59,809 nt of DNA from a virus (taxonomy: Duplodnaviria > Caudoviricetes): positions 1-59,809 of the IMG/VR virus record IMGVR_UViG_3300039307_000389; one strand, 5' to 3'. The notes beneath the pieces are model-generated. The model was not told the origin of the DNA and did not search any database. It was given only the letters and a program-made list of their open reading frames with translations. Shown here piece by piece: positions 3,391-59,809 of the stretch. Position numbers and translations under genes: made by a program. Within the stretch, counting starts at the first letter, position 1; every line of letters starts with the position of its first letter.

Positions 3391-3391
3391 G

Positions 3392-13775: not shown

Positions 13776-13789
13776 AATCCTCCGTAAGT

Positions 13790-42029: not shown

Positions 42030-43988
42030 TTAGACCTCCTGCCCGAACCATTTACGGCGCGGTATCCAGGTTTCCTTTTCGCCGGCGGGGTTTGCGGCCG
42101 GGCGTCTCCCCTGCTCGCCCGTCCCGTCCGGCCGCCGACTCTCGTTCTTGACCGGCGCGGAGAGTCTTTCCTCCAGCGCTTTCCAGTGCGCCTCTTGCGC
42201 TTGATCGACTCCGAGATCCCAGGCCGCGGCGCGGGCATAGTTGCGGCAGTCGAGGGCCTCGTTACGACCGTCTTTCCTCCACTCCCACTTCGTACGGCCG
42301 TTCTTCAGCTTTCTTGTGACTAACTGCTCGGCGGTTAACTGCTTGAAATGCTCATCCCCGTAGTTCTTGCCTTCACAGAAATGGCAGTATCCAGGCGGGA
42401 ATCCCACGCCCTGTTCGCGCTCTTGCGGCGTGGGCGGACGTAACCTCAGTCGGGAGTAGAGTTCACCCTTAAAGAACGAAACCGCTACGCGCTTGATTTT
42501 CAGGCCGAACTTCTTACCGGCAATTACTCCGTCAACCGGAGACGGCTGACTGACCGGGACTCCGCTCATTCCCGCCCTGTCATCTCCCTTGATCGCAGTT
42601 ACCCGCTCCTCTGGCTGCGTACGCACCCAGGCGTACACGTCGTTTGTCATGGTTCCGTCGCCGGAATCCACGAACATCCGGGATATCGGCAACTGCGCTC
42701 CGGACTCATGCGGAAAGGTTTCGTTGACGATATCCGCCAACTTCGCCCACACCGCGGGCTCCGAAGTGCGGCCCTCCAGAATCCGGTACTCTATCGACCA
42801 GCTCTCGCGGTTCCGTCCCCATGCGACGATCTCAACCTCGATGCGGTCGCGCTGCACGTCCACGCCTGCCGTCAGGATCAACCCGCCTGCGGGGACCGTT
42901 CCCAACGGGTACTTCTCGCGCCGCTCGATAAGCGTCCGATATTCTGGAGCCTCGCCCGGCTCTTCCCACAGTTCGGCCAGTTGCTCGTTAACGAACGTCT
43001 TCAGGGCCTCGTTGTTGTCTTTTGACTTCAAGAACTCGTCAACGAGCGCGCTGAGCTTGGTTCCGATCCGGGCCAATCCAGAAACCCTGAATCCAGCCAC
43101 GCCATTGAACGGACCCGTTGCGCGATAGCGGCCATTCACGCTGGCCGCCGTGCGGTCAACGTCAGTCCATTCGGCCTTGCACTCCTTGTTCGCGCAGACG
43201 TAGCGAGCCGACGCGCACTGCTTCTTCCGCGATGCCGCCGAAGAGTCCCATTTCACTTGCGACCACTTGGGGATCTGAAACTCCCCGCATTTCGGGCAGC
43301 GCAATTCGTACTCGCGCTTATCACTCTCCTCGTATGCCTGTTCTATCCGCGAGTACCCCTTTGCGGTTGGCGTGCAGGCGAGCATCGTCTTCCGATTCCA
43401 GAACTCCTCCTGGCGCCCTTGCGCCATCGAGATCGGATCGCCAGCGCCGCCGGCGGATGCCGGGTACTTGTCGATCTCGTCGCAGAAGAGATACCGGATC
43501 GGAAGGGCGGCCAAGTTCCCCGGCGATGCCGAAGCCACTACCGACAGATGGCCGCCAGGAAACGCTTTGTACTCGAAAGTGTTCTCACCGCTGCGAGATT
43601 TCTCTGTCGAGACTTTCCCGCGTAGACACGGCGTATCGCGCAGCATCGGCGCGAGTCGGATCTTAGACCACTTCTTGCAGTCCGTATCGCGGAACTGAAC
43701 CACCAGCATCGGCCCAGGATCTTGGTCGATGGCATAACCGAGACAGTTCAGTTCTATCTCCGTCTTTAAGGTTTGCCGTGCGACCATCATCACGATGGTG
43801 TGAATTGTCGGATCAGTGAAGGCGTCCATCGGCTCGCGCTGGTACGGCCGCGTCTTCCATTGACCTACGCGAGCGCTCGACTCGGGAGACAACTTACGCT
43901 TGGAGTCCGCCCATTGAGTGACAGTCAGTTTCGGGGGCGGCGCCCATAATTGCGCGATTTCCCGAACGGTCTCTGTTAGCGCGTTCAT
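42030..43988 (-). CDS. Terminase large subunit, GpA family
   Basis: PYQREPMD, ARQTLKTE, FCDEID, CTPT, TAGVDVQ, NEALDC. Confidence 0.95.
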   Translation of the reverse strand: MNALTETVREIAQLWAPPPKLTVTQWADSKRKLSPESSARVGQWKTRPYQREPMDAFTDPTIHTIVMMVARQTLKTEIELNCLGYAIDQDPGPMLVVQFRDTDCKKWSKIRLAPMLRDTPCLRGKVSTEKSRSGENTFEYKAFPGGHLSVVASASPGNLAALPIRYLFCDEIDKYPASAGGAGDPISMAQGRQEEFWNRKTMLACTPTAKGYSRIEQAYEESDKREYELRCPKCGEFQIPKWSQVKWDSSAASRKKQCASARYVCANKECKAEWTDVDRTAASVNGRYRATGPFNGVAGFRVSGLARIGTKLSALVDEFLKSKDNNEALKTFVNEQLAELWEEPGEAPEYRTLIERREKYPLGTVPAGGLILTAGVDVQRDRIEVEIVAWGRNRESWSIEYRILEGRTSEPAVWAKLADIVNETFPHESGAQLPISRMFVDSGDGTMTNDVYAWVRTQPEERVTAIKGDDRAGMSGVPVSQPSPVDGVIAGKKFGLKIKRVAVSFFKGELYSRLRLRPPTPQEREQGVGFPPGYCHFCEGKNYGDEHFKQLTAEQLVTRKLKNGRTKWEWRKDGRNEALDCRNYARAAAWDLGVDQAQEAHWKALEERLSAPVKNESRRPDGTGEQGRRPAANPAGEKETWIPRRKWFGQEV

Positions 43989-44530
43989 GCGGCCGTCTCC
44001 GGTTCCCAGCGGGCGAGTTCCGAGAGCGCCTCGTCTATCTCCGCCTCGATCTTGGCCTGAATCGCCGCCGGGTTAGTCTCGACGGCCAAATCCGGAGCCA
44101 GCCCATTACCTATCGCGCGCAGGCGCATCTTGGCCGCGGCCACCAGGCTACCCACCGCGCGCCGCACCGCTGCCAGTTCCGCGTACTTCCCCTCCAGGCG
44201 TAGCGCCTCCAACGAAGCCTTCTTGGCCTTCGCCGTCTCGTGAACTAACTGTGCGTGCGCCAGAGTTCCCGGCGTCGGAGATTCTCCGCGAGGTCGCGAT
44301 TCCGGCTGATATTCCTCCGGTTCCTGTGCCCGCGCCTTCGCTTTCGGACTCGGCTTTTGATGCTCGTTTACATTGGCCCGCGTGTTGCGAGCCCAGGCAG
44401 CATCCGCAAGGTCGGAGTCAAGCAACTTACCGTCGGTGAGCGCAATCCGTCCGGCCTTCACCGCCTTACTCACGGCCATTGCCGATACGCCCCTGTGTTT
44501 GGCGTACTGCCGCATCGACATGAGTGGCAT
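43985..44530 (-). CDS. Terminase small subunit (Nu1-like)
   Basis: MSMRQYAKHRGVSAMAVSKAVKAGRI wHTH followed by a coiled coil. Confidence 0.9.
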   Translation of the reverse strand: MPLMSMRQYAKHRGVSAMAVSKAVKAGRIALTDGKLLDSDLADAAWARNTRANVNEHQKPSPKAKARAQEPEEYQPESRPRGESPTPGTLAHAQLVHETAKAKKASLEALRLEGKYAELAAVRRAVGSLVAAAKMRLRAIGNGLAPDLAVETNPAAIQAKIEAEIDEALSELARWEPETAA

Positions 44531-44537
44531 TTATTTA

Positions 44538-44566
44538 TTGACTCCACAAACTGCTGCTGTTATGCT
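44538..44566 (+). promoter_or_regulatory. Sigma70-type promoter (probably leaderless transcript)
   Basis: TTGACT-17 nt-TATGCT with an extended TG; ATG 7 nt downstream. Confidence 0.65.
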
Positions 44567-44573
44567 CTGGTTT

Positions 44574-44834
44574 ATGGAGCGGCCGAAGAGCCAGAAGCTA
44601 CACTGCCCGAATTGCGGCAAGGTGATTCCGGATAGCGAGGTCCGCAGTAGAGCTGCTTCGCTGGCGAGCCGTGCCCGCGTAAACCCCGCCGGCGGACGCC
44701 CCGCGAAAGTCGAACCGTGCCCAGGCTGCCAGGCTCCCCTCACCGCCCGGCAGCGCCGCGTCCACCACTGCCCCGGCCTACCCCCCAGGAAGCGCGGACG
44801 GCCACGTAAACCGTTGCAAACGCAGGAAATATAG
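44574..44834 (+). CDS. Small Zn-finger / AT-hook DNA-binding protein
   Basis: CPNC...GGRPAKVEPCPGCQAP...HHC...KRGRPRK. Confidence 0.7.
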   Translation: MERPKSQKLHCPNCGKVIPDSEVRSRAASLASRARVNPAGGRPAKVEPCPGCQAPLTARQRRVHHCPGLPPRKRGRPRKPLQTQEI

Positions 44835-44947
44835 TTTCACCCCCGCAAGACCTCTGCAAACATTGGCGAGTCCGAGAGCGGCTCCGCTAAAGCACTGCAA
44901 ACGCTCCAAATAAAAACCTTCACAAACAGCGGCTATAGTGCGATAAT
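44815..44947 (+). promoter_or_regulatory. Repeated TGCAAAC boxes and a promoter for the plus-strand island
   Basis: TGCAAACGCAGGAAATA (44815), CCTCTGCAAAC (44851), TGCAAACGCTCCAAATA (44896); TTCACA-17-GATAAT at 44919-44947. Confidence 0.55.
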
Positions 44948-44994
44948 TCGATTTCGGGTTGGTTAAACCGGCCCGAGGAAAGGAAAACGGCCCG

Positions 44995-45297
44995 ATGGCG
45001 ACTCGACACCTACTGCTTACCCGTGGAACCGAATGGCGCCGCCTATGGAATTGGCGCGTTCGGGAATTACGGGGCGAGCCTAAAGACTGGAACCTGCTCA
45101 CCACTAGCGAGCCGCTGGCCGAATACCCTTCCCGTCTATCACCCATGGAAGCGGCCCGGTTAGCCTTCGCGGAATTTCCGGACTGCCGCCTCTACCTGCG
45201 GGTAGACGATCCCGACGCGGCTCCCCTGCGTTGCGAGAATTTCACCGTGGCGCGGGTTATGCCCACGGTTGCGGAGGCCCCTAATGACGCCAGATAG
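44995..45297 (+). CDS. Hypothetical protein
   Basis: First gene of the plus-strand island; AGGA RBS. Confidence 0.55.
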   Translation: MATRHLLLTRGTEWRRLWNWRVRELRGEPKDWNLLTTSEPLAEYPSRLSPMEAARLAFAEFPDCRLYLRVDDPDAAPLRCENFTVARVMPTVAEAPNDAR

Positions 45298-47420: not shown

Positions 47421-48698
47421 TTAGCTCTCGTAATCGCCCGCCTCGAACTTTTCCTGCCCTTTATCGGCGGCTGCCAAGAATCCGAAGTGGCCGCCCTCCG
47501 GGTTAATCATCTGCCACGCACCCGGCCCGAACCGCTCTTCAAGTTCCCGTAGTTCTCTCCACACATCCGGGAAGGTCGCCCGAATCGCGGCGTAGGCCTG
47601 CGGCTTTTGGCCCGGACAAATCCTACAGGCGGTACGGCACAGCCCGCGCGAATACCCGTCCCACGCTGGAAGGCCCGCTTCTTCGAGGAGCTTACCGCTC
47701 GTTTCCTTATCGCTGAAGTAGAGCGGCTGGAAGTACTTGTATTTCTCCATCCGCTCGACTACCAGAAACCGGCTCTCGTTTCGCTTTCCGGAAGCCGCGC
47801 GCTCCGAGAGTCTGCCACCGCGCAGGATCGCGATTTCATCCGCGCCGTGCGTGAGCATGTAATCGTCCAACGGCTGGTGCAGATTGTCGTGGCAGTACGG
47901 ATGTCCGAAGTGCGGCCATTGGCCCTTTTCGAGCATCGTGTCCAGAACGGTGCGCTTCGAGCGCAAGACCACCAGCGGTACGCCGAGGAACCGCGCCGCA
48001 TCGTGCAGGTACAGGTGGAATCCGACGTAATCGGCGCCGAGGTCCACGAACAATAGCTCGGTCGGGTTGTCGGGGAAATAGTGCCGCGCCCAGACGGCCG
48101 CCGCGCTCGAATCCTTGCCGCCGGAATACTCTACCAGTAGTTTGCGGCCCGCCAAGATCGCGCGCTCTTCTTCGGTGGGTTCTAGGTCACCCACGCAACC
48201 GCCCTTGATGGTGTCGGGCTTGAACGTCTCGCCTGCGGGTTCTTCCGCGCCGCCGGACCCGTCCGTGAGATCGGCCAGCAGGGAATCGAGGGACGGCCCG
48301 AGGTCTTGCCCGATTTCGCTGGTTCGCAATTCGGCCAGCAGGGAGTTCAACTTCTTTTCGTCTTTCTCCGCCTGGGCCGATATCGGGTCCATCGTCGCTA
48401 GGACCAGCGCCTCTTCCTCTTCGGTGAGGTCAACGTACAGAACCGGAACCGACTCGCCGGCCGCCTTCGCCATCTCCACGCGAAGATGCCCGTCTACCAG
48501 AAACCCCGTCCGCTGGTTCACTACGACGTTTTGGACCCATCCCACCTTATCGAGCACGCCGCCGAGCGCTTCGCGCTGCGCCGGCGGGTGCAGCCGCCAG
48601 TTCTTCGGGTTGGCGAGGAGCGTAGCGGCATCCTCGACGCCAGAGCCGACGATTCGGCTGCGCCAAGCTACCGAGCTGGTTTTGCGACCTTTTGGCAT
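47421..48698 (-). CDS. ParB-like domain fused to a PAPS-reductase-family (PP-loop) domain
   Basis: NPKNWRLHP...LVDGHLRV (ParB/Srx); YSGGKDSSA, PYCH, GGRLSER, RTACRICP. Confidence 0.85.
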   Translation of the reverse strand: MPKGRKTSSVAWRSRIVGSGVEDAATLLANPKNWRLHPPAQREALGGVLDKVGWVQNVVVNQRTGFLVDGHLRVEMAKAAGESVPVLYVDLTEEEEALVLATMDPISAQAEKDEKKLNSLLAELRTSEIGQDLGPSLDSLLADLTDGSGGAEEPAGETFKPDTIKGGCVGDLEPTEEERAILAGRKLLVEYSGGKDSSAAAVWARHYFPDNPTELLFVDLGADYVGFHLYLHDAARFLGVPLVVLRSKRTVLDTMLEKGQWPHFGHPYCHDNLHQPLDDYMLTHGADEIAILRGGRLSERAASGKRNESRFLVVERMEKYKYFQPLYFSDKETSGKLLEEAGLPAWDGYSRGLCRTACRICPGQKPQAYAAIRATFPDVWRELRELEERFGPGAWQMINPEGGHFGFLAAADKGQEKFEAGDYES

Positions 48699-48805: not shown

Positions 48806-48942
48806 TAATTCAGTGTTTGCAACAACTTCGACGCGCATAGTCACTACGCCTTTCGAGCCCTTCGCAACTCCAGATCCCAGAGCAGGGAGTCGAGCCAATC
48901 CAGGAGCGCTCCCCATGTCCACGCCTCTAACCGCCACATCGT

Positions 48943-49296
48943 TTACACCCCTCGGAGAGTCGGCAGGATTGCCCCCCACCAGCGCCGTATCACCGTCCGG
49001 TCGGGAGAGTCGTTCATCAGTCCAATGGCCCCTGATATTCGTTGCAGGATAGCTTCCCCATCGACGGCGGGAGGAGCGGCCCTTTCAGGCTGGGGAGCAG
49101 GCGGAGGGAACGGAGGCGGAGGACACCGCTTTGGCATCGGAGGCCAAGCCTTATGCAGGACCGTGACCGCATACGGCGCCCTCGCCGGAACTCCGGAGCC
49201 GCCCGTAGGCGGAGTCGGGTTTAGCGGGGAGTGGGTCACATCGGGTTGATACCCCGAGCCCGTGTACCTCCGAAGCGCGTCATCAGCACGTTCCAT
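48943..49296 (-). CDS. Pro-rich hypothetical protein
   Basis: AAGG RBS; within the operon. Confidence 0.4.
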   Translation of the reverse strand: MERADDALRRYTGSGYQPDVTHSPLNPTPPTGGSGVPARAPYAVTVLHKAWPPMPKRCPPPPFPPPAPQPERAAPPAVDGEAILQRISGAIGLMNDSPDRTVIRRWWGAILPTLRGV

Positions 49297-49313
49297 TCGC
49301 CTTATCCTTCCCG

Positions 49314-49592
49314 TCAGTACAGATCGTCCGAGTAGTGTGGGCAGCCCCGGCGACAGTGCTCCCCCTGCTGGGGTGGATGCCTCTTGACGCTCTCTGCTAC
49401 GCGCATGATCGCCGCTTCCAGCGTTGCGCCGTCCACCGCAAACGATCCGTGGCTCCCGATGCCGTGGTGTACGTGCCAGTCGTAGAACCAGATGCGCCAG
49501 GTGCTGGATGATGGGAAGTAGTCGATGTGCGGGTTACCGTACCGGGACGCCAGCAGGTTCAGGTTGCTATTGACGTTCCTACCCGTGCTCAC
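49314..49592 (-). CDS. Hypothetical protein
   Basis: GTGA overlap with the upstream gene. Confidence 0.55.
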   Translation of the reverse strand: MSTGRNVNSNLNLLASRYGNPHIDYFPSSSTWRIWFYDWHVHHGIGSHGSFAVDGATLEAAIMRVAESVKRHPPQQGEHCRRGCPHYSDDLY

Positions 49593-49954
49593 TTGCCCGT
49601 CTCCCTGTCGTAGCGCGCGTTATAGCGCTTGATCGAAGCCTCTATGTCCACGCCGTACCGATCCTCGAACTTCGCCTTGCCCAGCGCTTCTATCGAGGAC
49701 TCAGGGCCAGCCTGTATCTGGTGGAACTCGGGAGCCAAGGGCAACGTGCGCCTGTCGTCTTTCGGCTCTCCGAACCGTCGAACGTGGTGTACCGTGGCGC
49801 GCCGGCCGGATATCATGCACGGTTGCTTCGCTATCCACGCCAGGTACGCCTTATCGACGCCACGCCCGCGCCGCGGCTTGCTGCGCCGAGCCTTTACGCG
49901 CTTCATTCCAAAGATGGCCATTAACGCATCCGCCGCGCCGTACTCATTCGCCAT
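49589..49954 (-). CDS. Ref/DUF968-like HNH-type nuclease
   Basis: YLAWIAKQPCMISG...HHVR...TLPLAPEFHQ...FEDRYG. Confidence 0.75.
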   Translation of the reverse strand: MANEYGAADALMAIFGMKRVKARRSKPRRGRGVDKAYLAWIAKQPCMISGRRATVHHVRRFGEPKDDRRTLPLAPEFHQIQAGPESSIEALGKAKFEDRYGVDIEASIKRYNARYDRETGK

Positions 49955-50414
49955 CGGGACCATCCGAGGTTGGGGGGACAATCGTAACGAACTCGCGTGT
50001 TTGAATGCGCCTCAGTACGGACACCAAAAGGCGGATCTCATCGCGTACAGCGTCGATCTCCCTGTTTCGGTAGGCGGCTTTTACGATCACGCGCGTGTGG
50101 TTCTCGCCGATCTCCACTAGGCCCCATCCGTCCGTCAACTCTTCGGGCTTGATCGTTCCCTTGGGGGCCATGTAATATCGGTAGTCCCCAAGCCCTACAC
50201 CGGGAATGCGCCGACTGATCTTCTCCCGATCCGCTAAGAAGTCGGGGCGGGATGCCTTGCATTCGACCAGCACAGAGTGGCCGTTCTTCCATCCGATGGC
50301 GTCCGCAATCTCGTTACTGGAAACGCACGCGACCACCTCAACGGCAACGGCTCCGCAGTGCTCCCTCCCTCTAAGCCAAGAGGAGGCCTTGCGGACAACA
50401 TCCCGATGCGTCAT
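49944..50414 (-). CDS. PD-(D/E)XK-type (MmcB-like) nuclease
   Basis: EIADAIGW...VLVECKASRPDFLAD...YRYY...WGLV. Confidence 0.7.
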   Translation of the reverse strand: MTHRDVVRKASSWLRGREHCGAVAVEVVACVSSNEIADAIGWKNGHSVLVECKASRPDFLADREKISRRIPGVGLGDYRYYMAPKGTIKPEELTDGWGLVEIGENHTRVIVKAAYRNREIDAVRDEIRLLVSVLRRIQTREFVTIVPPTSDGPDGE

Positions 50415-50803
50415 ACCGCCTCGCCCGCACCGCCACGAAAGCGCTCCGTTCGGGACAAGTGGCTCAAGTAGAGCTTTTTGTCTTTCAGGATCATGTCGGC
50501 GAGTTTGCGGCGCGCCGGCCAGGGCAGGGAGTCAATAAAGAGTTCAAGTTGCGCTGTGGAGCACTTCGGGCAGAGGTCCACGCGCTTATGGATCGTGTCC
50601 CTATCGCCGGCTCCGTCCATTTCGGTGTCCACGGCAAAGGAAAATCCGTGCGCATCCGGCTTCCCGCACAGATCGCAGTACGTTACCGTCTTCTCCATCA
50701 CCGCTCCCCTTCTCGGCCACAACGCAAGCAACTCAGCGAACACCCTCCGGTCCCTTCGCAAGCGCGCCGCACGCGCCACTCCTGCCAGGTCGTAGGGGTT
50801 CAC
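50411..50803 (-). CDS. Zn-ribbon hypothetical protein
   Basis: YCDLCG...DLCPKC; start uncertain (50803 or 50698). Confidence 0.55.
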   Translation of the reverse strand: MNPYDLAGVARAARLRRDRRVFAELLALWPRRGAVMEKTVTYCDLCGKPDAHGFSFAVDTEMDGAGDRDTIHKRVDLCPKCSTAQLELFIDSLPWPARRKLADMILKDKKLYLSHLSRTERFRGGAGEAV

Positions 50804-50933
50804 CCGCGGAACCGTTCCGCTATCGCGAACTCGATCTTTGCTATCTGGTCTGTCAGCCACTGCCGTCTACGCTCCAGCGCCGCCAGTTCAGCCATCACCG
50901 GATCGACATACGGTCGGCATTTGTGCCAGGTTT

Positions 50934-51335
50934 TCATGGGGCCATCTCGCGGGGCGGCGGAATCGCGCAACTGCACTCAGCCGCAAGCTGCACAATTCGT
51001 TCGATGAACTCGCCGTACTGCGCATCGTCGAGGTCTTCAGTTGACGGGATTACCGGCAGGCCTGCTTTATCGACCGTCTCGCCATCCCAGAGCAACTTCA
51101 GCTTCAGAATGACTTTCATCTCCGCCGGCGCATGACCGCAGTACTCAGCGAAGATCGGTATTACGACGCCATGCAGATACCGGCGCTTATTGCCGCTTAA
51201 GTGCCTGCGTTCCTTGCGGATCGTAAGCTCGAAGCGTTTCCCCTCCAGCGTGGCAGCGTAAACGTCGAATTGGCGGCGCTGCTCGAAGTGCAGGCGCCCG
51301 TCACTGACAAAACCGTGCCATATCGGAGTAGGCAT
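50934..51335 (-). CDS. NinB/YbcN-like protein
   Basis: KRRYLHGVVI...STEDLD...EFIERI. Confidence 0.65.
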   Translation of the reverse strand: MPTPIWHGFVSDGRLHFEQRRQFDVYAATLEGKRFELTIRKERRHLSGNKRRYLHGVVIPIFAEYCGHAPAEMKVILKLKLLWDGETVDKAGLPVIPSTEDLDDAQYGEFIERIVQLAAECSCAIPPPREMAP

Positions 51336-51348
51336 TCAAAAGACCGGC

Positions 51349-52220
51349 GCGGGGAGGATTGGATCTCAGATCCGTATACCTCCCCGCTATTGTGCGAACG
51401 GGATTTAACGCTCTTGGATGGCCCGGCATCTGGCCCGGTGTTTCTGATGGATTTCCGGTCCACTTCGTAACTGCTCCGGATGTTTAACGCTGCGATGCCG
51501 GGTCCCGAAACGCTCTCGCTGTGGTTTATAGAATTTCAAGGTGTTCAGCGCCGGTCTCTCCCGGCTTGTCACGTCTGGATAACGGTCCCCGCTGCTTGCC
51601 TGATCGACGTTCCCGTGGCGACTCTACCCCGTGCGGGTTTGGGGGGCTTCGGCATCGGCATCCCTAAGCCATTCACTTGACTGGCATCCGTTCTCACCAG
51701 TGCGCGGCCGACGAATAGATCAAATCAGCGGGGCTGGAATCGGTCGATACTTCAGCCTATCCAGCCCCTTTCGTGTTTATTCTTGGGTGGGGTGCGATCC
51801 AGTAACGCCTTTCTGTGACCGCCGGCCCAAAGGCGATGATGCGCCGCTCTACCCCACCGCATCCGGTTAGAGACTCTCCGGAACTGGCCGATAGTCCATC
51901 AGGACACCGGAGGCCAACCCGTTCAGGTGAGGGTTGCTATCCACCCTCGAAGTCTTGGCTATCCAGGCCGCCCATTACGCCTTTGCGCTCATCGCGCGAT
52001 GTCGTATAACCGCTACGACCAAACGGTGCGGTTGCAGATTTACGTCGTCTGGGCTACCGCCAATCGCTGACGCTGCGGAACGGGTTTCCCCGTCCCCGAG
52101 GATGGCAGTGCAGATTTGAACTGCCGCCCCACTCTTCCCGCCAAAGAAGAGCCAGGCTGATCCGCTACGCGCCCCTGCGTCTCGGATCGCGCTGAGCCAC
52201 CCAGCGCATCCCTGCCATCC
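51349..52220 (-). ncRNA. Candidate large structured non-coding RNA including a tRNA-like element
   Basis: No convincing ORF over 51340-52040; more than 12 consecutive hairpins; T-arm GCAG-TTCAAAT-CTGC inside a 9 bp closing stem at 52100-52220. Boundaries approximate. Confidence 0.5.
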
Positions 52221-52389
52221 AAACCCCTACCAGCCGTCCGAATTAAAGACCGCAGATTCGGCGGTGGGTAGTAATCCCTGAGATCCTCGCCCGCGTCAAT
52301 CAGTTTGATGAGCCTGTTTTCAATCGACTGCGCGCGAGCGTAAGCGTGAGGATCGACAGACTCCAGCGTTACCGCGCCCGATGGTTGGC

Positions 52390-52707
52390 TCACTTCTGCA
52401 ACCCCCGGAGCATTTCTTCCTCCGCCTCGTGATCGTGTGCGATTCGGTTTCGATTCCGCTCCGCGCTCGCGTTGTATCCGCCGCGGTCCAGCAGTTGCAG
52501 GAACGGCGCCGAGCAAGCCTCTTCGATATCGGACCAAAACGCATCGAGAACGCCGCGCGTGATCCGGCGCGCTTCCCGCTCCGTGCTCACAGCATCGAGC
52601 GCAGTTGGGATGTCCGCCGTCTCGCGATCCACCAGCACGGCCGGGTAAGTGTTCCCCGATGGGGAGGTAGATGGGGGGATTTTGCGCTCTGGGAATTGGA
52701 AGCTCAT
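52390..52707 (-). CDS. Hypothetical protein
   Basis: 105 aa ORF after the sigma-like gene. Confidence 0.55.
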   Translation of the reverse strand: MSFQFPERKIPPSTSPSGNTYPAVLVDRETADIPTALDAVSTEREARRITRGVLDAFWSDIEEACSAPFLQLLDRGGYNASAERNRNRIAHDHEAEEEMLRGLQK

Positions 52708-52716
52708 GGTATAGGA

Positions 52717-53280
52717 CTACTCCGCTTCGTGCGGCCCGAAAGAGCCGTCCGCTTGAGTGTCAGTCCCCCGCATAGTAGTAATAGCTTGAGGGTCGGAAAT
52801 AATAACCCCCGCCCGAATATTTGTTTGAGCTTTTTTCAGGAGGTAGTGAACCGCTGGCTGAGAGATACCCATCTCGACCGCTACGGCCGCCTCGCTAAGG
52901 CCTCCCCAGTACGTGAGCATCACGGCCCGGTACTGGCGCGCCGGCAGGGCCTTCATCGCCTCCCAGAGGTCCAGGTGCGCTCGCTCGGGGCATATCCTGT
53001 GCCCGCCCGACGACATCAGGAGTTCCAGCGGATCATCCACCCGGCCGCGGTTGCGCCGTTCGTTCTTCCGAATCGCGCCGATCATGGCCCGGCGCGCCAC
53101 AATCACCGCCAGCGCCTCTTCCGGTACGATGGCCAGCGCCGCCAACGCCAGGTAGCCCACGGACATCAGTTCGTCGCGCTCTATCCAGCGAAATACCCCG
53201 GTCCTTCCAAGCGGCCCGACCGCGCGCTTGCAGATCGCTACGAAGTCCACACACACCTGTTCCGTTAGAGGTTTTCCCAT
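52717..53280 (-). CDS. Sigma70 region-4 (ECF-like) regulator, probable late activator
   Basis: DELMSVGYLAL; LWEAMKALPARQYRAVML...LSEAAVAVEMGISQPAVHYLLKKA. Confidence 0.8.
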   Translation of the reverse strand: MGKPLTEQVCVDFVAICKRAVGPLGRTGVFRWIERDELMSVGYLALAALAIVPEEALAVIVARRAMIGAIRKNERRNRGRVDDPLELLMSSGGHRICPERAHLDLWEAMKALPARQYRAVMLTYWGGLSEAAVAVEMGISQPAVHYLLKKAQTNIRAGVIISDPQAITTMRGTDTQADGSFGPHEAE

Positions 53281-53345
53281 TGGTTTTCTCAGTAAGAAAC
53301 AAGAACACTTACACTACATAGGGGTTAAGTGCTGGTTAACTTGAG

Positions 53346-54281
53346 TCAACCTGTCAGTTGACTTGGACTCAACTCGCAAGTCGAAAGCAAGTCCAACTCC
53401 GGCTGTTCCTGTGGAGCATCCAGGTACTTGGCCGCATTTCGCTGGGCCTGAGCGAAGTAGCTCTCCTTTAGCTCGAACCCCACCGAGTCTCTTCCCAGTT
53501 CGATGGCCACCACCGCCGTACTCCCGATCCCCATGAACGGATCGCACACCAGCTCTCCGGGGTTCGTGTACAACCTGATGCACCTCCGGATCACTTCCAA
53601 TTGCAGCGGGCAGACGTGCTTCTCTTCGCCGCTTTCGCGCGCCGACTTCCAGCCATCGAGAACATCCGTCTCCCGGATATCGTTCCAAACGCCCCTCGCC
53701 CAGGCGATCCACTCCTCCTGGCTGACCCAGCCTCCTGGGTTCTTTTCCGAGTCGTACAGGCAGCGCACGCGCACCGCGGAGTCTCCCGGCTTCTGGAAGA
53801 TCATCACGTAATCGTTGACGGCCGGAGCGAGCTTCGTTCCGTTCGTGCGGCCCGTCTCGAACATCAGGCAGTGCAGGTTTAGCCGCTTGGCGATGATCTG
53901 GGGGTTCTTGGGTATGCTCACCTCTCCGATCCACTCGAACCCGCCGGCCTCGAACAGATCCACCACGGCGCCGCGAAAGTCGCGCCGGCCCATGTAGCCG
54001 TGCTGATTCTTGTACCGTAGGAGCTGCTGGATGTGGATGCAGACGTTCCGGCCGGGCTTCATCACCCTGAGCAACTGCTCAATGAAGAATCGCATGTGCA
54101 GGCCGAACTGAGACGCGCGCATATCAACGCCGTCCGGGTTATTTCCGATGTCTTCGTTCTTCCCGCTGTACATGAACAGCGCCCCGAACGGGACCGAGGT
54201 CACCGTCAGGTCAACGGACTCCGGCTCCAGGCGCCCGGCCATCCCCGGTATCGTGTCTTCGTTCCAGATTTGAGCCGTCAC
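53346..54281 (-). CDS. N4-C/N6-A DNA methyltransferase (beta class)
   Basis: LTVTSVPF, KHVCPLQ, CDPFMGIGST, GFELKESYF; GTG start overlapping the upstream stop. Confidence 0.9.
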   Translation of the reverse strand: MTAQIWNEDTIPGMAGRLEPESVDLTVTSVPFGALFMYSGKNEDIGNNPDGVDMRASQFGLHMRFFIEQLLRVMKPGRNVCIHIQQLLRYKNQHGYMGRRDFRGAVVDLFEAGGFEWIGEVSIPKNPQIIAKRLNLHCLMFETGRTNGTKLAPAVNDYVMIFQKPGDSAVRVRCLYDSEKNPGGWVSQEEWIAWARGVWNDIRETDVLDGWKSARESGEEKHVCPLQLEVIRRCIRLYTNPGELVCDPFMGIGSTAVVAIELGRDSVGFELKESYFAQAQRNAAKYLDAPQEQPELDLLSTCELSPSQLTG

Positions 54282-54535
54282 TTGCGCCACCGCTTTCTTG
54301 CCATCGCCCGGCGCGCCCTGATAAAGCAATGCCTGTCGATAAGCATCTTCACCGTCTGATTGAAATTCCCGAAGAGCGCCGGCAGCGTCTCCAGGCAGCC
54401 GAGGTTCAGATCATCGCAGTTCGGGCAGGTAGGGAACGCCGTCACCGCCTTACGGATCGACACCGTAGCCCCGCAAATTGCGATCATCTTCGATGCTCGC
54501 TTCGGGGTCTTGTCGCAGTCTGGGCAGTGCGTCAT
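54278..54535 (-). CDS. Cys-rich hypothetical protein
   Basis: CPDC...CPNC; ATGA overlap. Confidence 0.55.
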   Translation of the reverse strand: MTHCPDCDKTPKRASKMIAICGATVSIRKAVTAFPTCPNCDDLNLGCLETLPALFGNFNQTVKMLIDRHCFIRARRAMARKRWRK

Positions 54536-54978
54536 GCTTCCACCTCCCATCGGATCTTGTCTTGCGTCGGATGATGATCGACGCGCGGCCGACTCGGGCA
54601 ATGCCACGAGCGGCCCTTCACCCTTCCCACCTCACGCCAGCCGGAAGCCACGAGAGAAGTGCCCGGTTCGCTGGCCAGCGTATACGTGATGAGCTTGCGG
54701 TACCCCAGGGCCCGGCAGGCACGCCAGCAGGCCGCGTAGAGCGCGGAGCAGGCGTTCTTCGTGCCATCTGTGGCTAGGCGCGTCACCTCGGCCGTGAATC
54801 CGTCCTGATTCAGCCGCGCCACCGGACGCCCCACGATAGCGACACCGCAGACCCGCTCGCCCTCGGCGCACGCCACGGCGAATAGACCGGACAGTGGAGG
54901 AGCATGGTGCCTATGAACCTGGCGCACGTATTCTCGCGCGTCCTGGATCGAGCATGGAACTACGGCGAGAGACTTCAT
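54532..54978 (-). CDS. XF1762-family GNAT-fold (Mom-like) protein
   Basis: HRHH..P...GVAIVGRPVAR...EVTRLATDG..NACSALY...LITYTL...GTSLVASGW. Confidence 0.8.
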   Translation of the reverse strand: MKSLAVVPCSIQDAREYVRQVHRHHAPPLSGLFAVACAEGERVCGVAIVGRPVARLNQDGFTAEVTRLATDGTKNACSALYAACWRACRALGYRKLITYTLASEPGTSLVASGWREVGRVKGRSWHCPSRPRVDHHPTQDKIRWEVEA

Positions 54979-55193
54979 AGCGGATACTCCCAGTAGCCGT
55001 TGAAATCAAGCCTCCCGTATCCGCTCGTGATCTCCCCGCCTATCCCCGTGGAATACCAGGGACACGCTCCAGCCGCTTTCATAAAACAAGCGAGTTCATG
55101 TCGGACGGCTTCGGGAATCGGATTATCCGGTTCCGGAGCGAACAACTCCCGCTCTATTTCGTCAATCGGATCAGCGAACCAACCCGGAATCAC
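54975..55193 (-). CDS. Hypothetical protein
   Basis: Overlap-coupled on both sides. Confidence 0.55.
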   Translation of the reverse strand: MIPGWFADPIDEIERELFAPEPDNPIPEAVRHELACFMKAAGACPWYSTGIGGEITSGYGRLDFNGYWEYPL

Positions 55194-56758
55194 GCCGCCA
55201 TCCTTTCCAGCGCGAGCTTGTAATACCGCTCCTGTTCTTCGGCGTCCGCCTCGAAGTTGCCTTTCTTTCGGAGAACGTTCTCCAAGATCACGCCCTCCAA
55301 CTGCGGAATGAACGGCAGATGGACCCGTACGGACTTCAGTTGCCCGTAGCGGATCGCGCGTTTCACGGCCTGGTAGAAGCGCTCGTAACTGTCATCCCAG
55401 CCCGAGAAGATCATGGAGCCACAGCACTGGAAGTTCATCCCGAATCCGAGCATGGACGCCTTGGATATCAGGCCGTCCAACTCGCCCTTTCGGAACGCCT
55501 CCAGGATCGGCAGGCGCGCCTTCTCTTTGACTGAGCCATCCAGGACGCGCACGTTCAGTCCGGCCAACCGTTCGGCGATCAGCCGCCCCTCTTCGTCAAA
55601 CACGGTCCACACCAGGACCTGGCGGCCGTCGGCGATCTCGCTCCGAATCAGGTCCGCGATGAAACCCGGCTTCGGCGAGGGGAACCGCTGCGCCGTCTTG
55701 CCCGTGTAAATGAACCCCTTGGCGATCTGGGATAGCTTCGTGCGCTGTGTGATCCCGAGCGACTGATCCCCGAGCAGGCCTGCGCCGGACTCATGGAATA
55801 TCCCCGCGGCCATGGCCATCTGTTCGTCGGTCGGTTCGAGGCTGTGTTCCAGGAACTCAGGCGGCGGAATCTTGCTGAGGTTGTCCTCCCAGCCGTAATG
55901 CGCGGGGCTTCGCAGGTAGATCGACCAGCTCGCCATGAAGCGGTAGAATCCCTCGCGGGCGTGCGGCTTGATCTTCCAGTTCCCCTTTTTGTCGCGCGTG
56001 AAGAAGGTCCACAGGATCTCTCCCTCCGTGCGTAGCTTTTCCAGGAACGCCGCCTGGCTCGCGTACTCCATGATGTCGTTGGGCGCCGGAGTCGCAGTAC
56101 AGGAGAGCTTGTATTCGATCCCCTTCGAGGATTTGATGAGGTTCCATTTGATGGTTCCCCCACCGGACTTCAGGATGCTCGACTCGTCGCAGATCAGCCC
56201 CGCCAGGTAGCGCAACTCCGGCAGTAGCCCGTCGATCATCTTTTCGTAGTTCGTGATGGCAAGGCCCGGGCCCGGCCGCTTGAGCCACTCCACGAGCGCG
56301 GCGCGCGTCTCGATTCGCTCGATGGGCAGGCTCCCGCCGTAGAACCGCTCCGATTCATCGCGCGTCTGTTCGATCACCTGGAGCGGAGATAGAATCAGCA
56401 CACGGCCGCCCGTGGCCGCCATGACGTGGCGCGCCCATTCGAGGAACATCAGCGTCTTCCCGAGGCCGCAGTCCGCATAGATGGCGTACCGCTTGGCTTC
56501 GAGTGCCGTGCGCACGATGAACCGCTGGTAGTCCCACAGAAATCCGGAGATCTCCAGTGCTTCGCGCACGGCCGCCGATATATTGGCTCCGAGCATCGGG
56601 GCGAACCGCGCCGGCGTGGTGAGCTTGTAGGCGTCCCGTTCCCAGTCGTACGATAGTTGGCTCTCGGGGAGTTTCTTGCACTTCAGAAAGAGCCCGTAAG
56701 CCTCCAGGTCGAACCGCGAGAACTCCACCTCTGCCAGTGGGCCGTTGACCGATACCAT
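55190..56758 (-). CDS. SNF2-like superfamily 2 helicase
   Basis: DCGLGKT, CDESS, TATPAPND, FGMNFQ, QAVKRAIRYGQ. Confidence 0.9.
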   Translation of the reverse strand: MVSVNGPLAEVEFSRFDLEAYGLFLKCKKLPESQLSYDWERDAYKLTTPARFAPMLGANISAAVREALEISGFLWDYQRFIVRTALEAKRYAIYADCGLGKTLMFLEWARHVMAATGGRVLILSPLQVIEQTRDESERFYGGSLPIERIETRAALVEWLKRPGPGLAITNYEKMIDGLLPELRYLAGLICDESSILKSGGGTIKWNLIKSSKGIEYKLSCTATPAPNDIMEYASQAAFLEKLRTEGEILWTFFTRDKKGNWKIKPHAREGFYRFMASWSIYLRSPAHYGWEDNLSKIPPPEFLEHSLEPTDEQMAMAAGIFHESGAGLLGDQSLGITQRTKLSQIAKGFIYTGKTAQRFPSPKPGFIADLIRSEIADGRQVLVWTVFDEEGRLIAERLAGLNVRVLDGSVKEKARLPILEAFRKGELDGLISKASMLGFGMNFQCCGSMIFSGWDDSYERFYQAVKRAIRYGQLKSVRVHLPFIPQLEGVILENVLRKKGNFEADAEEQERYYKLALERMAA

Positions 56759-56762
56759 CCCG

Positions 56763-57107
56763 CTACGCCTCCGCCAGAAGCGAATCAGGGCATTCCCAGA
56801 CTTCCATCTCGACCATCTTCCGGACCTTCCGGCAAACCATCGACTTGCTGATGGCCACGTCGAGCTTGAGTCCCCCGAACGTACGAATGGCGTAATGCTC
56901 CTTCATGATCGATTTGTCGTCGTCGGTTCGCTTCTCGACCTTCCCGCCGCGGGCAAGCACCCGGACGGCGGAGACAAACTGATCCTTGCTGAAGGAGTTC
57001 ACTACCATCGACGTGTACGACGGCATGGGCATCTCGGGGTTTGCGGCGTAGAAATCCGCCAACTCCCGCAGGCCTTGAACGAATTGCTCGTTTGTGATTT
57101 CCTGCAT
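56763..57107 (-). CDS. Hypothetical protein
   Basis: MQEITNE...; TAATG overlap. Confidence 0.65.
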   Translation of the reverse strand: MQEITNEQFVQGLRELADFYAANPEMPMPSYTSMVVNSFSKDQFVSAVRVLARGGKVEKRTDDDKSIMKEHYAIRTFGGLKLDVAISKSMVCRKVRKMVEMEVWECPDSLLAEA

Positions 57108-57493
57108 TAGCAGCGCTCCCCTTTGGTTTCCACCGCAGTCGGCGAGAATGCCTTGCCGCACTGAACGCAGAATCCATCCTTCTGCTCGGTTGGCTGTAGG
57201 CAGTAGCAGAATCCGTTCAGTAGCGGCGGCTCCGGCGTGCGCTCCTGTTTGATGGCCGCGCGAAGGGTCGGATAAGGAACTACGGATTCCACGGCAGTGA
57301 CCCATTCGCCGTCGTACTGGCGTGTCTCCCGATACCAGACCTTGCCTCGCCTGTAAATGCGGTGCTTTTCGTCGGGACTCAGGTAGACGCCATCCGCCCG
57401 GCGAACCCATCCGGCCATGGAATAGACGTGCGACGGTCGCTCCGCTCCCCCGCGCATCCAATCCAGTAATCTCTTGAACCATCCACGTTTCAT
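57107..57493 (-). CDS. Hypothetical protein with a C-terminal Zn ribbon
   Basis: MKRGWF...FCYC...FCVQCG; GAGG RBS. Confidence 0.6.
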   Translation of the reverse strand: MKRGWFKRLLDWMRGGAERPSHVYSMAGWVRRADGVYLSPDEKHRIYRRGKVWYRETRQYDGEWVTAVESVVPYPTLRAAIKQERTPEPPLLNGFCYCLQPTEQKDGFCVQCGKAFSPTAVETKGERC

Positions 57494-57676
57494 CGTCTTG
57501 ACCTCAATTGCGGAGCCGGGTTCGCCGGCCCCGCGATGTGTGTGTGTCGTTTTCAGCGGGCTTTCACCGTCAACCACCGGAGGCTCGCTACACCTGTCCC
57601 GGATTCTCGGCAGGCTCCCGACCTGCTTGCTGCCGGTGTTTCTCCCCGCGCATAATGGCCTCCCTGTTCAGGTTTC

Positions 57677-59809
57677 TCAAGCTGCCACTCTCGCCTTCAC
57701 CCCTCCACCGAACTGCGCGCGTACCAGCGCTTCGGCCGGCGGCGGAGACACGGAGTTCCCGCACATGCGAACCTGCGCTGTCTTCGTGAGCTTCACTTCG
57801 GCGCCGGTCTGCGGATCGCGCCCGGTTTCGATGATGTATTCGTCGGGGAATCCCTGCGCGCGGAACAACTCGCGAGGGCACAGCATCCGCATCCCGATGT
57901 CTACGATTTGGTAGTCGATTCCGTGGACCGTCACGATGCCCAGGCGGTGCTTTGTTGTGAGCGTCGGGGCTGGTTCATTGAGGCGCGCGTCTTGATCGGT
58001 GCTGTAGTAGCTCAGAAGGAACGCGCGAACTTCGGCGATGTGCGTACCCCCCGCGCTCACGGTGGCCATCGGTTCATCGACCGGCTGGCCGTCCTGGCAC
58101 GTACCGCGCAACTTTACCAAAGAACTCGCCACCAAGGCAGACTTGCCACCGCCCCCGGCCGTCACAGTTCCGGCAGGTTCTTCCGCCTCGTTCCCCACCG
58201 ACTTGCCGAACTGCCGAGACACGAAAGCCGTCACGAGTGCGTTATGATCGCTCGCGGTCACCGTGGCCATCGGGTCATTGAGATCAGATCCAACCACCCC
58301 GGTATAGTGCTTCGCTAGAAACGCGGAACAAAGCCCGAATCGCGGAGCGCCCGCTATCGCGGTGTCGAGCGGCTCCTCCATCGCATGGCCGATTCCGTTC
58401 TGATTGAACCGCGTGATATGCGCTGCCACCAGCGCGTGCTTCACACTTCCGACCACCGTTCCAAGCGGCTTGTCGAGTCCCGGAACTCGCGGTTCTTGCC
58501 CGTCTCGTTCGCCGTACCCGGTCTGAATGAGCGTCGGTACCGCGAGCGCGAAGCTACCGCCCTTTGGATTCGCGGTTACCGTCCGCATCGGTTCGTCCGG
58601 CGGCTGAACGGTATCGCTCCCGTTGTAGTGCGCGATGGGTGCGATGAAGGGCGTAACAAGCGCCTTCTCGCCGCGGTGCGCTCCGGTGATCGTGCGGAAC
58701 GGTTCTTCCATCCCCTCGCTTCGATCTCCGCCCTGATGCGTGAGGCTCTGCAAGAAGGGAGTCACGAGCGCCGTATCCGCCTTCGCGGTGATCGTGTGAT
58801 AGGGATCTTCCACGGAGCGCTCGGGAGATTGGCCCATGCGCCCGCCCAGCCCGGCGAGAAGTGGTGATACCAGCGCCCTGCCTTCGTACCTGGTAGCCGT
58901 CGTGAGCGACTCGTCAATGCCGTACTCGCGCCGGCCTCCGCTGTCCCCGTGGTTGATCGAGACGATGAACGGCTCCGCCGAATCGAGCACATAGCGCTTC
59001 ACGCCGCGGCCGATGCGCCGCATGGTGGCATCCGCGAGCGGGCGGTTTACTCCGATGGCGCGAGCCTCTTCCTTCGTGAGGAAAATCGAAGGGCAGGGCA
59101 GCGACCAGTCGATGCAATCGGCGGCCGTCCGGTATGGTTCGAGAAACAGGTTCCCCTTGGGGCCGTGCGTTGCTTCCGGCCACGGGATCGTTTTCATGTC
59201 GCGCCTGGCGACGATAAACAGCCGCTTGCGGATTGTCGGCGCGCCGAACTCGCACGCGCGCATTTCGCGCCAATCGACAACGTACCCGAGGCCCTGGAGT
59301 TGCTTCACCCAGCGCTTGAACGTCTGCCCCTTGCGCTTCGGGCACGGCCTGTTGTGAACCAGCGGCCCCCACGTCTGGAACTCCTCGACGTTCTCCAGCA
59401 TGATGACGCGCGGCTTCACGATGCCCGCCCATTTCAGCGCTACCCAGGCGAGGCCCCGGATTTTCTTTTCGACGGGCTTCCCACCTTTGGCCTTCGAGAA
59501 GTGCTTGCAGTCCGGAGAGAACCAGGCGAGCCCAACCTTCCGGCCGGCGACTACCTGCGCGATATCCACTTCCCAGACGTTCTCGCAGAGGTGGAGCGTA
59601 CCCGGATGGTTGACGGCGTGCATCGCCAACGCTTCGGGATCGTGGTTGATCGCGATATCGACGGGCCGCCCCAACGCCAGCTCTATCCCGGTACTTGCCC
59701 CACCGCCGCCGGCGAAGTTGTCAACGATCAGTTCGTCGGCTTCGATGCCGGGTATCGCTGCCCTAAAGGGTGTAGGCACACCTCGGGCTTCGTGGTTTTC
59801 GGTGTTCAT
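57677..59809 (-). CDS. C5-cytosine DNA methyltransferase with an internal repeat region
   Basis: FAGGGG, SPDCKHFS, LENVEEF, RKRLF, RAQGFP, CGNSV; repeated EPxxTVT units. Confidence 0.95.
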   Translation of the reverse strand: MNTENHEARGVPTPFRAAIPGIEADELIVDNFAGGGGASTGIELALGRPVDIAINHDPEALAMHAVNHPGTLHLCENVWEVDIAQVVAGRKVGLAWFSPDCKHFSKAKGGKPVEKKIRGLAWVALKWAGIVKPRVIMLENVEEFQTWGPLVHNRPCPKRKGQTFKRWVKQLQGLGYVVDWREMRACEFGAPTIRKRLFIVARRDMKTIPWPEATHGPKGNLFLEPYRTAADCIDWSLPCPSIFLTKEEARAIGVNRPLADATMRRIGRGVKRYVLDSAEPFIVSINHGDSGGRREYGIDESLTTATRYEGRALVSPLLAGLGGRMGQSPERSVEDPYHTITAKADTALVTPFLQSLTHQGGDRSEGMEEPFRTITGAHRGEKALVTPFIAPIAHYNGSDTVQPPDEPMRTVTANPKGGSFALAVPTLIQTGYGERDGQEPRVPGLDKPLGTVVGSVKHALVAAHITRFNQNGIGHAMEEPLDTAIAGAPRFGLCSAFLAKHYTGVVGSDLNDPMATVTASDHNALVTAFVSRQFGKSVGNEAEEPAGTVTAGGGGKSALVASSLVKLRGTCQDGQPVDEPMATVSAGGTHIAEVRAFLLSYYSTDQDARLNEPAPTLTTKHRLGIVTVHGIDYQIVDIGMRMLCPRELFRAQGFPDEYIIETGRDPQTGAEVKLTKTAQVRMCGNSVSPPPAEALVRAQFGGGVKARVAA

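Follow-up and report, generated by a model that had tools for sequence, protein, structure and literature searches.

A modular structured RNA region with a tRNA-shaped module, predicted between a sigma-like gene cluster and the NinB-like gene of a temperate phage

A gap of about 890 nt (minus strand, ~51336-52228) in the temperate-phage record IMGVR_UViG_3300039307_000389, whose full stretch of 59,809 nt is called the window below, separates a small open reading frame (ORF) behind a sigma-like gene cluster from a NinB-like gene, and is predicted to hold a modular region of structured RNA that has not been described before, is narrowly distributed and shows strong covariation in two of its modules, T and F1. 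Rather than junk, this element is probably a new phage RNA, and a functional RNA structure on the sense strand, the strand that carries all surrounding genes (minus), is highly likely. That the sense-strand RNA acts in cis to govern read-through into, or translation of, the genes downstream is the reading we tentatively prefer, as possible rather than probable; co-transcription, the cis-regulatory role and its mechanism are what we infer. A preliminary description had pointed to a hairpin-dense stretch of ~750 nt without credible ORF and to seven stems, at 51349-51387, 51422-51502, 51550-51565, 51730-51768, 51786-51858, 51929-51948 and 52001-52019; all seven lie where they had been placed, and the non-coding stretch proved real, though longer than was given. 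When compared with relatives, the stems at 51349-51387, 51422-51502 and 52001-52019 show compensatory changes, those at 51550-51565, 51730-51768 and 51929-51948 are invariant, and that at 51786-51858 occurs in the window only, with nothing to compare. The covariation that the preliminary description had asked about was found in several helices (T, F1, P1, the terminal hairpin and GUCGUA/UACGAC).

Module T (52100-52220, minus strand; 121 nt) is built from a closing stem and four hairpins in the shape of a tRNA-like cloverleaf. Its minimum free energy (MFE) of -74.1 kcal/mol corresponds to z = -5.16, and none of 200 shuffled sequences was equally stable. The last arm, GCAG-UUCAAAU-CUGC, is T-loop-like and is separated by 1 nt from the closing stem (3' strand); the loop of the first arm reads UGG(C), and the third arm is long. 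In the closest relative, L040 (L-numbers denote related loci; G139 is a related genome, present as locus L019), all 41 pairs are kept, with four compensatory and six one-sided changes, and a model of the window and L040 (R2) matches the G139-type locus L041 at 3412-3550 (E 6e-6). In alignment A12, 99.1% of the cells are paired and 11 of the 41 pairs are compensatory, a count reached by none of 500 shuffles, with slid controls giving 1-2; the loops UUCAAAU/UUCGAAU (UUCRAAU) and (R)UGGC are kept in all three versions. A tRNA-like structure that mimics the elbow is marked by a T-arm loop of the form UUCRANY, a GG-containing D-like loop and a closing stem beside the T-arm; all of these are present, and the predicted layout and loops of module T are those of the tRNA elbow. 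On the other hand, module T is unlike a tRNA gene in its length, in lacking a 7-nt anticodon loop, and in a second arm that bears a 6-nt loop on a 10-bp interrupted stem. ARAGORN found no tRNA gene in the window, either by default or on a lowered threshold (-ps90), nor was there an Rfam tRNA match, so that a position "beside tRNAs", as had been suggested, does not apply here, though one module is itself tRNA-shaped.

Module F1 (51405-51512, minus strand) is a long irregular hairpin (GGGACCCGGCAUC / GAUGCCGGGCC with inner helices) that encloses the conserved internal loop AGCGUUAAAYAUCC; a second AGCGUUAAAUC follows downstream of F1. RNAalifold on four sequences returned F1 as the stem CCCGGCATC/GATGCCGGG, already listed in the preliminary description, together with inner helices, 9 of the 20 pairs being compensatory. 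A model of those four sequences (R1) finds L044 (E 2e-10) and L049/L050 (E 0.002), on which it had not been trained. In alignment A10 of seven sequences, which are related, were fitted to the model and include the near-duplicates L049 and L050, 93% of the cells are paired and 12 of the 20 pairs are compensatory; none of 500 shuffles reaches this count, and slid controls, with partners moved by 1-3 columns, yield 0-3 compensatory pairs.

F1 with two AGCGUUAAAU motifs, a GC-rich terminal hairpin and the subsequent GCCGGUAUUU make up the 3' core of the element. The terminal hairpin, GCGGGGAGG..CCUCCCCGC (51349-51387) followed by GCCGGUCUUUUGA, occupies 51336-51387 on the minus strand, directly before the NinB ATG at 51335. 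F1 and the terminal hairpin are present in the window, L040, L041 and L045, not in L043. The terminal stem varies with its pairing kept, as GCGGGCCGG/CCGGCCCGC in L040, GCGGGGCG/CGCCCCGC in L045 and GCGGGGCUGGA/UCCAGCCCCGC in L049, and is followed by GCCGGUAUUU, which reads GCCGGUCUUUU in the window. Three different downstream genes are preceded by GCCGGTATTT, with 0-5 nt between it and the ATG, namely NinB in the window, the small genes orfA/orfB in L040, L041 and L045, and an ORF for a 94-aa Cys-rich protein in L049/L050. A looser variant is found in L044, where an outer stem encloses the module and is followed by ACCGGUUCUAA and the NinB ATG. The compact versions L044 and L049 retain exactly the 3' core; L043, without F1, ends in a canonical terminator, GGGCAGG..CCCUGCCCUUUUU (read by eye). 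An intrinsic terminator has a GC-rich stem with a U run within 0-2 nt after it; a terminator scan did not return the terminal hairpin of the window as one. The NinB start is without a Shine-Dalgarno motif, which an inspection of 15 gene starts found in at least 6, and no sigma-70-like promoter was found by a scan of 50800-53400.

The minus strand of the window is shown to be the predicted RNA strand by three features. First, 21 of the 113 cells of module T in alignment A12 are G-U (one is unpaired), and these would become A-C mismatches on the opposite strand. Second, the RNAalifold energy over seven modules amounts to -187.8 kcal/mol in the sense and -160.5 kcal/mol in the antisense direction, the sense being better in six of the seven. 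Third, the canonical terminator of L043 is also oriented in the gene sense.

The support for structure from folding energy is modest. For 51336-52100, z is -3.51 on the minus and -2.91 on the plus strand (20 shuffles each); 51336-52228 gives -3.96, to be set against -3.10, -2.06, -0.99, -0.98, -0.50, +0.19 and +1.27 in seven control windows of equal length on the same strand. For 150-nt windows, mean z is -0.78 in the gap (n = 10) versus -0.02 elsewhere (n = 171; one-sided Mann-Whitney p 0.03), and the window 52100-52249 has the lowest value of all 187 (-4.86). The caution, voiced at the outset, that high GC content inflates hairpin counts was justified.

Conservation, as judged from the aligned relatives, is by module and not by one global fold. 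The order methylase, sigma-like, p105, small ORF, gap, (small orfA/orfB), NinB, DUF968 was found by tblastn in 7 of 11 loci, wholly or largely (L040, L041, L043, L044, L045, L049 and L050); in G139, an HNH gene, the terminases and a portal gene come next. The 25 fetched copies collapse to five distinct long versions, compared over 450 nt: the window, L040, the G139 type (L041 and 12 others), L043 (3 copies) and L045 (5 copies). Two compact versions of 140-190 nt, L044 and L049/L050, hold just the 3' part, such that the size of the element ranges from ~140 to ~890 nt. Over aligned columns, the gap is 80% identical to that of L040, and the sigma, p105, small and NinB genes 69-73% (without a shuffle baseline); at the DNA level, the gap is conserved at least as much as its flanking genes. 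The 271 pairs of the whole-gap MFE structure fare differently in L040, with 143 unchanged, 31 changed but kept, 63 broken and 34 gapped; among those changed on both sides, 11 are kept, mostly in local modules, and 13 broken. A single giant fold was rejected, the whole-gap MFE not being conserved even in the closest relative. Contigs (DNA) of four peat-labelled metagenome runs contain near-identical copies as well as diverged partial copies with flanks unlike those of the window, and the differences in metagenome contigs are not spaced by threes.

Some observations on the small genes that follow the element in relatives may be added. The paralogous orfA/orfB (motif DVADACRxLExxGYxF) lie between the element and NinB at 5380-5559 and 5549-5857 in L019, 4001-4366 in L040, 3678-3941 in L043 and 3945-4220 in L045; the copy of L044 (3718-3882) is placed after NinB, and no copy is present in the window. 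The start of NinB is overlapped, in a different frame, by the 3' part of orfB. In L049/L050, the 94-aa Cys-rich ORF (CxxC..CxxC-like) stands after the compact element at 3381-3665, where others have orfA/orfB or NinB.

Between T and F1, the window carries a 5' core and a series of middle modules, all on the minus strand. A GAAA-tetraloop hairpin, GGGACGGG-GAAA-CCCGUUCC (52077-52096), is given by the MFE structure only. Block a (52026-52073) forms hairpin P1 (GCGGU/ACCGC) with a conserved 23-nt loop containing an invariant TAAA; its consensus, GGCGUCNGNGAUUGGCGGUAGC...GACG..UAAA...GCAACCGC, is present in all five long versions and unique in the window. P1 has two compensatory pairs (C-G to U-A in L041, G-C to C-G in L045). 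A promoter reading of block a was dropped because the block forms a covarying hairpin. Apart from P1 the 5' core is invariant; it is 97% paired, and 25 of 500 shuffles reach the observed count. The hairpin GUCGUA/UACGAC (52001-52019; alignment rows A3, A4) becomes GCCGUA/UACGGC in L040 and GCCGUG/CACGGC in L043, with pairing kept. It is followed at 51952-51997 by a GCGC-loop-GCGC hairpin and block b (AAAGGCG..GGGCGGCCUGGA.AGCCAAGAC), found in all five long versions with invariant helices; a remnant of block b, AAAGGCGAUGG, persists in the compact L049. Module C1 (51887-51951), composed of GAGGGU-GGAUAGCA-ACCCUC and GUCC-UGAU-GGAC, is 86% identical to that of the G139 type, the only other version to have it; in diverged contigs of two metagenome runs its loop and flank change and its stem does not. 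L040, L043 and L045 have C2 instead, which starts with GCCGG-GAUAGA-CCGGC. In the G139 type, module T stands between C1 and F1 and not at the 5' end.

A window-specific insert with the stem GGUGGGGU/ACCCCACC (51786-51858) is known from its sequence and MFE only and occurs in no relative. The hairpin of module D, GGGGCUGGA..UCCAGCCCC (51725-51774), has the same 50 nt in L043 (100% identity) and almost the same in L040, within flanks of ~70-77% identity, and its stem sequence equals the stem of the terminal hairpin of L049. Module E (51577-51724) is common to the window and L040. A stretch of ~100 nt of it (51568-51665) was also seen, with six differences, in a ~20x-deep contig of metagenome run X2; since the flanks of this contig are unlike the window on both sides, module E also exists in another context. 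The hairpin GCCGG-GAGAGA-CCGGC (51550-51565) recurs with the loop GAUAGA in L040 (twice), L043 and L045, and offers no covariation to read because its stems are invariant. As an observation in its own right, the sense motif GGAUAG occurs in or beside hairpin loops three times in the gap, where 0.3 are expected (plus-strand coordinates 51757-51766, 51937-51946 and 51959-51968), and the loop of the GCCGG-GAUAGA-CCGGC hairpin of relatives is related to it. A long-range helix, AGACCGGCGC/GCGCCGGUCU, was excluded from the consensus: the upstream arm is confined to the window and L040 (L041 has none, and L045 only a distant shorter ACCGGC), and the downstream arm is missing from L043.

The element was found in one phage group only, with 2 of ~1,400 genomes and a handful of viral and metagenome contigs as holders. 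No phage GenBank record matched the gap by blastn, and a DNA search with the gap among 61 relatives returned the own genome only. Among 401 genomes of the same order, G139 was the only real match, in two blocks; the remaining 14 matches (26-61 nt, E 2e-4 to 0.01) were not counted as real. The small-ORF profile (A2) found G000 and G139 only among 401 genomes of the family, and nine loci each from metagenome and from viral contigs. The block-a pattern retrieved from 401 genomes of the phylum the own genome and one match with two mismatches, the reversed control pattern giving five; model R1 found the own genome only among 151 genomes of the family, a sample without G139. NinB protein patterns retrieved no relatives from genome and viral contigs, exact DNA patterns retrieved known versions only from the same two sources, and of 17 pattern matches in genome contigs, just L024 was gap-like, with a 20-nt chance match in L029.

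The element reaches ~52228 because the conservation of the small ORF ends after ~55 aa and L040 stops after 52 aa. The small ORF lies on the minus strand between the p105 gene and the gap; its GTG start (52393) and the TGA stop of p105 overlap as GTGA, and in the window its frame stays open for 117 codons (52040-52393). Its conserved part of ~55 aa (52229-52393, alignment A2) is defined by phmmer homologues: among 1.84 billion representative proteins, 12 matched at E <= 0.001, of which 11, with 53-81 aa, align to query residues 1-60 only, and the twelfth, P0004 (755 aa), to tail residues 56-96. The small ORF belongs to no Pfam or PHROG family. Its open-frame tail (52040-52228), seen in the window only, overlaps module T and half of hairpin P1; in L040, where the ORF ends after 52 aa, the homologous DNA lies in another frame. 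With a codon-phase periodicity of 0.03-0.08, the tail is probably, on this comparison, not conserved coding sequence. Within 51336-52039, minus-strand ORFs wholly inside measure 36-55 aa only, and the codon-phase GC periodicity over ~51300-52260 is 0.02-0.17 as opposed to 0.2-0.4 in flanking genes; the low-periodicity runs 51421-52020 and 51841-52380 together match that of the tmRNA region, the longest in the window (240-nt windows). None of 10 stop-to-stop ORF pieces matched Pfam at E <= 1, and one matched PHROGs, at E 0.22 only. The claim of a hairpin-dense stretch without credible ORF is in keeping with this low periodicity and with ORF pieces that have no family match.

The element belongs to no described family that was searched. 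In Rfam 15, nothing matched 51100-52600 at E <= 10, the whole window gave only a permuted tmRNA (13835-14078) at the gathering score, and six related loci gave nothing at E <= 0.5. The kinship to GOLLD or ROOL proposed in the preliminary description is not borne out because no Rfam family matches; its alternative, a new RNA class, is a fair description. The element resembles GOLLD and ROOL in its several hundred nt, many helices and prophage context, and differs from them in having no Rfam match at E <= 10, no adjacent tRNA genes, no single global fold and a very narrow distribution. A host repeat (REP/MITE-like) would recur; the element is single-copy by BLAST, and R1 and R2 give one significant match each, in the own genome. 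A protein sponge of the CsrB/RsmZ type was rejected, with 24 GGA in the window gap against 21.5 +/- 3.9 expected and no enrichment in any of the five versions.

Bacterial Y RNAs such as YrlA carry a tRNA-like domain and also occur in phages, and share with module T that T-arm-like and D-arm-like hairpins are found in an RNA other than tRNA (PMC4201824). They differ in that YrlA genes adjoin a Ro60 (TROVE) gene and in that no Rfam match exists here. No Ro60 gene (TROVE, PF05731) was detected in the own, 100%-complete genome, 2 of 14 control genomes being positive as expected; the assignment of module T to a YrlA-type or Y RNA was rejected because the genome has no Ro60 gene.

Likeness of another kind is found among RNAs that act on the transcript in which they reside. 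The terminators tR2-tR4 of the lambda nin region and the PR'-6S-tR' late leader constitute a hairpin barrier between a regulator gene and NinB-type genes, and the present hairpin likewise stands directly upstream of NinB-type genes and downstream of a regulator gene; however, it has no adjacent U run in the window, and 0.5-0.9 kb of conserved structure lies ahead of it, of which none is known in lambda. HK022 put RNA, EAR and lambda nut/boxB are RNA hairpins in a nascent early transcript of a temperate phage that act on the transcribing polymerase. The boxB hairpin has a GC stem of 5 bp and a purine-rich loop, as does the recurring GCCGG-GAKAGA-CCGGC. In contrast to put, EAR and nut, the element lies mid-operon, not promoter-proximal, and has no Rfam match of any kind; put and EAR are, according to PMC8191782, also much smaller. 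In conAn of Gram-positive conjugative plasmids, the same source describes a ConAn1 protein and a conAn2 RNA by which polymerase reads through the downstream terminators of a long operon, the RNA antiterminating and the protein making antitermination processive (PMC8191782). The likeness consists in a small protein gene directly before a large RNA region (cis-acting in conAn) near the start of a long mobile-element operon. The differences lie in another host phylum and type of element, a small ORF without Pfam family that also occurs here without most of the RNA, a function that here we infer, and a sequence relation of which none was seen and none tested. For a cis-acting processive antiterminator of the type of put, EAR and conAn2, the support lies solely in position and precedent.

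The element is most simply regarded as part of the operon transcript because no promoter was found and it begins at the conserved end of the small ORF. It would be transcribed in the gene sense by extension of the transcript that covers the sigma-like gene, p105 and the small ORF, in the order T cloverleaf, 5' core (P1, block b), variable inserted hairpins, 3' core and a start codon without Shine-Dalgarno motif. The folded RNA would then decide whether polymerase, ribosomes or both enter the recombination and late genes (NinB, DUF968, terminase), in the manner of an attenuation/antitermination or a translation-start device, possibly with one of the small conserved proteins whose genes lie just upstream. 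Such a role in cis is favoured because of the missing promoter, the terminal hairpin with GCCGGUAUUU 0-5 nt before an ATG, the compact 3' core and the NinB start devoid of a Shine-Dalgarno motif. Several points weigh against it. The energy support is modest, one of the seven control windows reaching down to z = -3.10, the lineages number only 5-7, and the alignments A10 and A12 behind the pair counts were fitted to the model structure and are thereby biased toward structure. The terminal hairpin is no canonical terminator, its U run lying 5-7 nt past the stem, after GCCGG. The place of module T in the array differs between window/L040 and the G139 type, and in the window, not in L040, the small-ORF frame is open through module T to 52040, so that ribosomes could unfold the module there. 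The small ORF occurs without most of the element in L044 and L049/L050; ORF and element are therefore not an obligate pair. None of the eight metagenome runs named as holders is recorded as RNA. Finally, a tRNA-like module and ~0.9 kb of ornament exceed the needs of a simple attenuator, which suggests a stable RNA as the better fit.

The main rival starts from this last point: one or more stand-alone, stable, trans-acting RNAs, perhaps cut from the operon transcript, could serve as tRNA mimic or decoy, as protein scaffold, or in counter-defence, and cleavage at the tRNA-like module might be by RNase P and RNase Z. We consider this unlikely, even though the very stable, covarying module T has the layout of a tRNA and module D keeps 100% identity over 50 nt in phages with ~25-30% difference elsewhere. 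In this context one should recall that tRNA-like domains can be substrates of RNase P and are known from stable RNAs of bacteria and phages (PMC4201824), and that size, modular ornament and phage context are reminiscent of GOLLD and ROOL. Against this rival, no promoter was found by the scan; the compact versions dispense with T and the middle modules and yet keep the 3' core beside the ATG, and the absence of a Ro60 gene, of an Rfam family and of any RNA record among the eight holder runs tells in the same direction. A bolder proposition, which we regard as doubtful, would see in the element a new class of large modular phage RNA of 0.5-0.9 kb, with exchangeable hairpins set around conserved 5' and 3' cores and with a tRNA-elbow mimic, acting either as an early-to-late switch of the processive-antiterminator type in the manner of put and conAn2, or, once processed at the tRNA-like module, as a stable tRNA decoy against host defences.

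Improbable, in our view, is that the hairpins work as DNA, whether as protein-binding inverted repeats, as single-strand initiation or replication signals, or as boundary sequences for recombination. In favour of a DNA role are the mosaic pattern, with modules swapped, moved or missing and one found in unlike flanks in a metagenome contig, the placing of GCCGGTATTT exactly at the junction with different downstream genes, and a helicase gene ~3 kb upstream. DNA hairpins, however, accord poorly with the 21 G-U cells of module T, which would be A-C mismatches in duplex or opposite-strand hairpins, and with irregular helices that contain bulges and loops reaching ~60 nt. Repeats are short and scattered, with neither iterons nor tandem repeats among them, and there is no AT-rich unwinding region since the GC content stays at 0.53-0.63 throughout. 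Decayed or unrecognised coding sequence, be it a pseudogene remnant or a few small ORFs, is very improbable, as the 117-aa frame open across 52040-52393, the real-looking 94-aa ORF after the compact element of L049/L050 and the orfA/B genes of relatives, absent from the window, are outweighed by missing codon-phase periodicity, by 10 ORF pieces without family match, by a frame not conserved between window and L040, by differences in metagenome contigs not spaced by threes, and by substitutions that keep base pairs, not codons.

The temperate-phage genome resides within a bacterial contig, and three related contigs are found in the IMG/VR viral collection. In transcription order, the neighbours on the minus strand are a DNA methylase (57677-59809), the helicase (55190-56758), a Mom-like protein (54532-54978), a second methylase (53346-54329), the sigma-like protein (sigma-70 region-4 / ECF-like, 52717-53280) and p105 (a 105-aa protein, 52390-52707). 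Directly downstream of the element follow the NinB-like gene (50934-51335; phrog_72, E 7e-9), DUF968 (49589-49981), a ParB/PAPS-reductase-like protein (47421-48698), and the small (43985-44530) and large (42030-43988) terminases. The element is placed between the sigma-like cluster and NinB, with the small terminase gene ~7 kb further downstream, and its expression with the late operon, as proposed earlier, is a conjecture. The early region 53346-59809 is rich in DNA-modification genes, with two methylases and the Mom-like protein in 6.5 kb. An ESM Atlas search with p105 and the small ORF gave no informative match. The C-terminal motif of p105 (window gene 52390-52707) is Arg-rich, APFLQLMD.GGYNESAR.NRERI, and occurs twice in the G139 prophage (L019), in the p105 homologue (3307-3708) and at the C-terminus of the second half (4097-4633) of a split sigma-like gene (3732-4106 plus 4097-4633). 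A permuted, two-piece tmRNA gene (13744-14109, minus strand; tag peptide ANSYENALPLAA; Rfam tmRNA_permuted, 104.5 bits) was also noted; tmRNA genes are common integration sites, and this one may mark the prophage end. Further long runs of low codon-phase periodicity lie at 44461-45180, 48841-49440 and 1051-1710, the first of them just upstream of the small terminase gene, where a packaging site or a further non-coding element could lie.

To our knowledge, the structured RNAs of phages infecting Acidobacteriota of soil and peat are essentially uncharted, and the phages considered here are temperate ones from metagenome runs labelled peat or wetland. Although nothing in Rfam 15 matches the element, clear covariation is seen in two of its modules, and one of these would be a tRNA-shaped cloverleaf inside an operon transcript. 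The modular make-up provides a clean example of mosaic evolution of RNA domains, with modules moved, swapped and dropped among relatives. Few examples of RNA-based antitermination are known, namely put, EAR and conAn2 (PMC8191782). If control of read-through or translation into the recombination and late genes is true, the element would represent an RNA-based timing switch in a phage group known only from metagenomes; if instead a stable tRNA mimic is true, it would bear on the use that phages make of tRNA-like RNAs.

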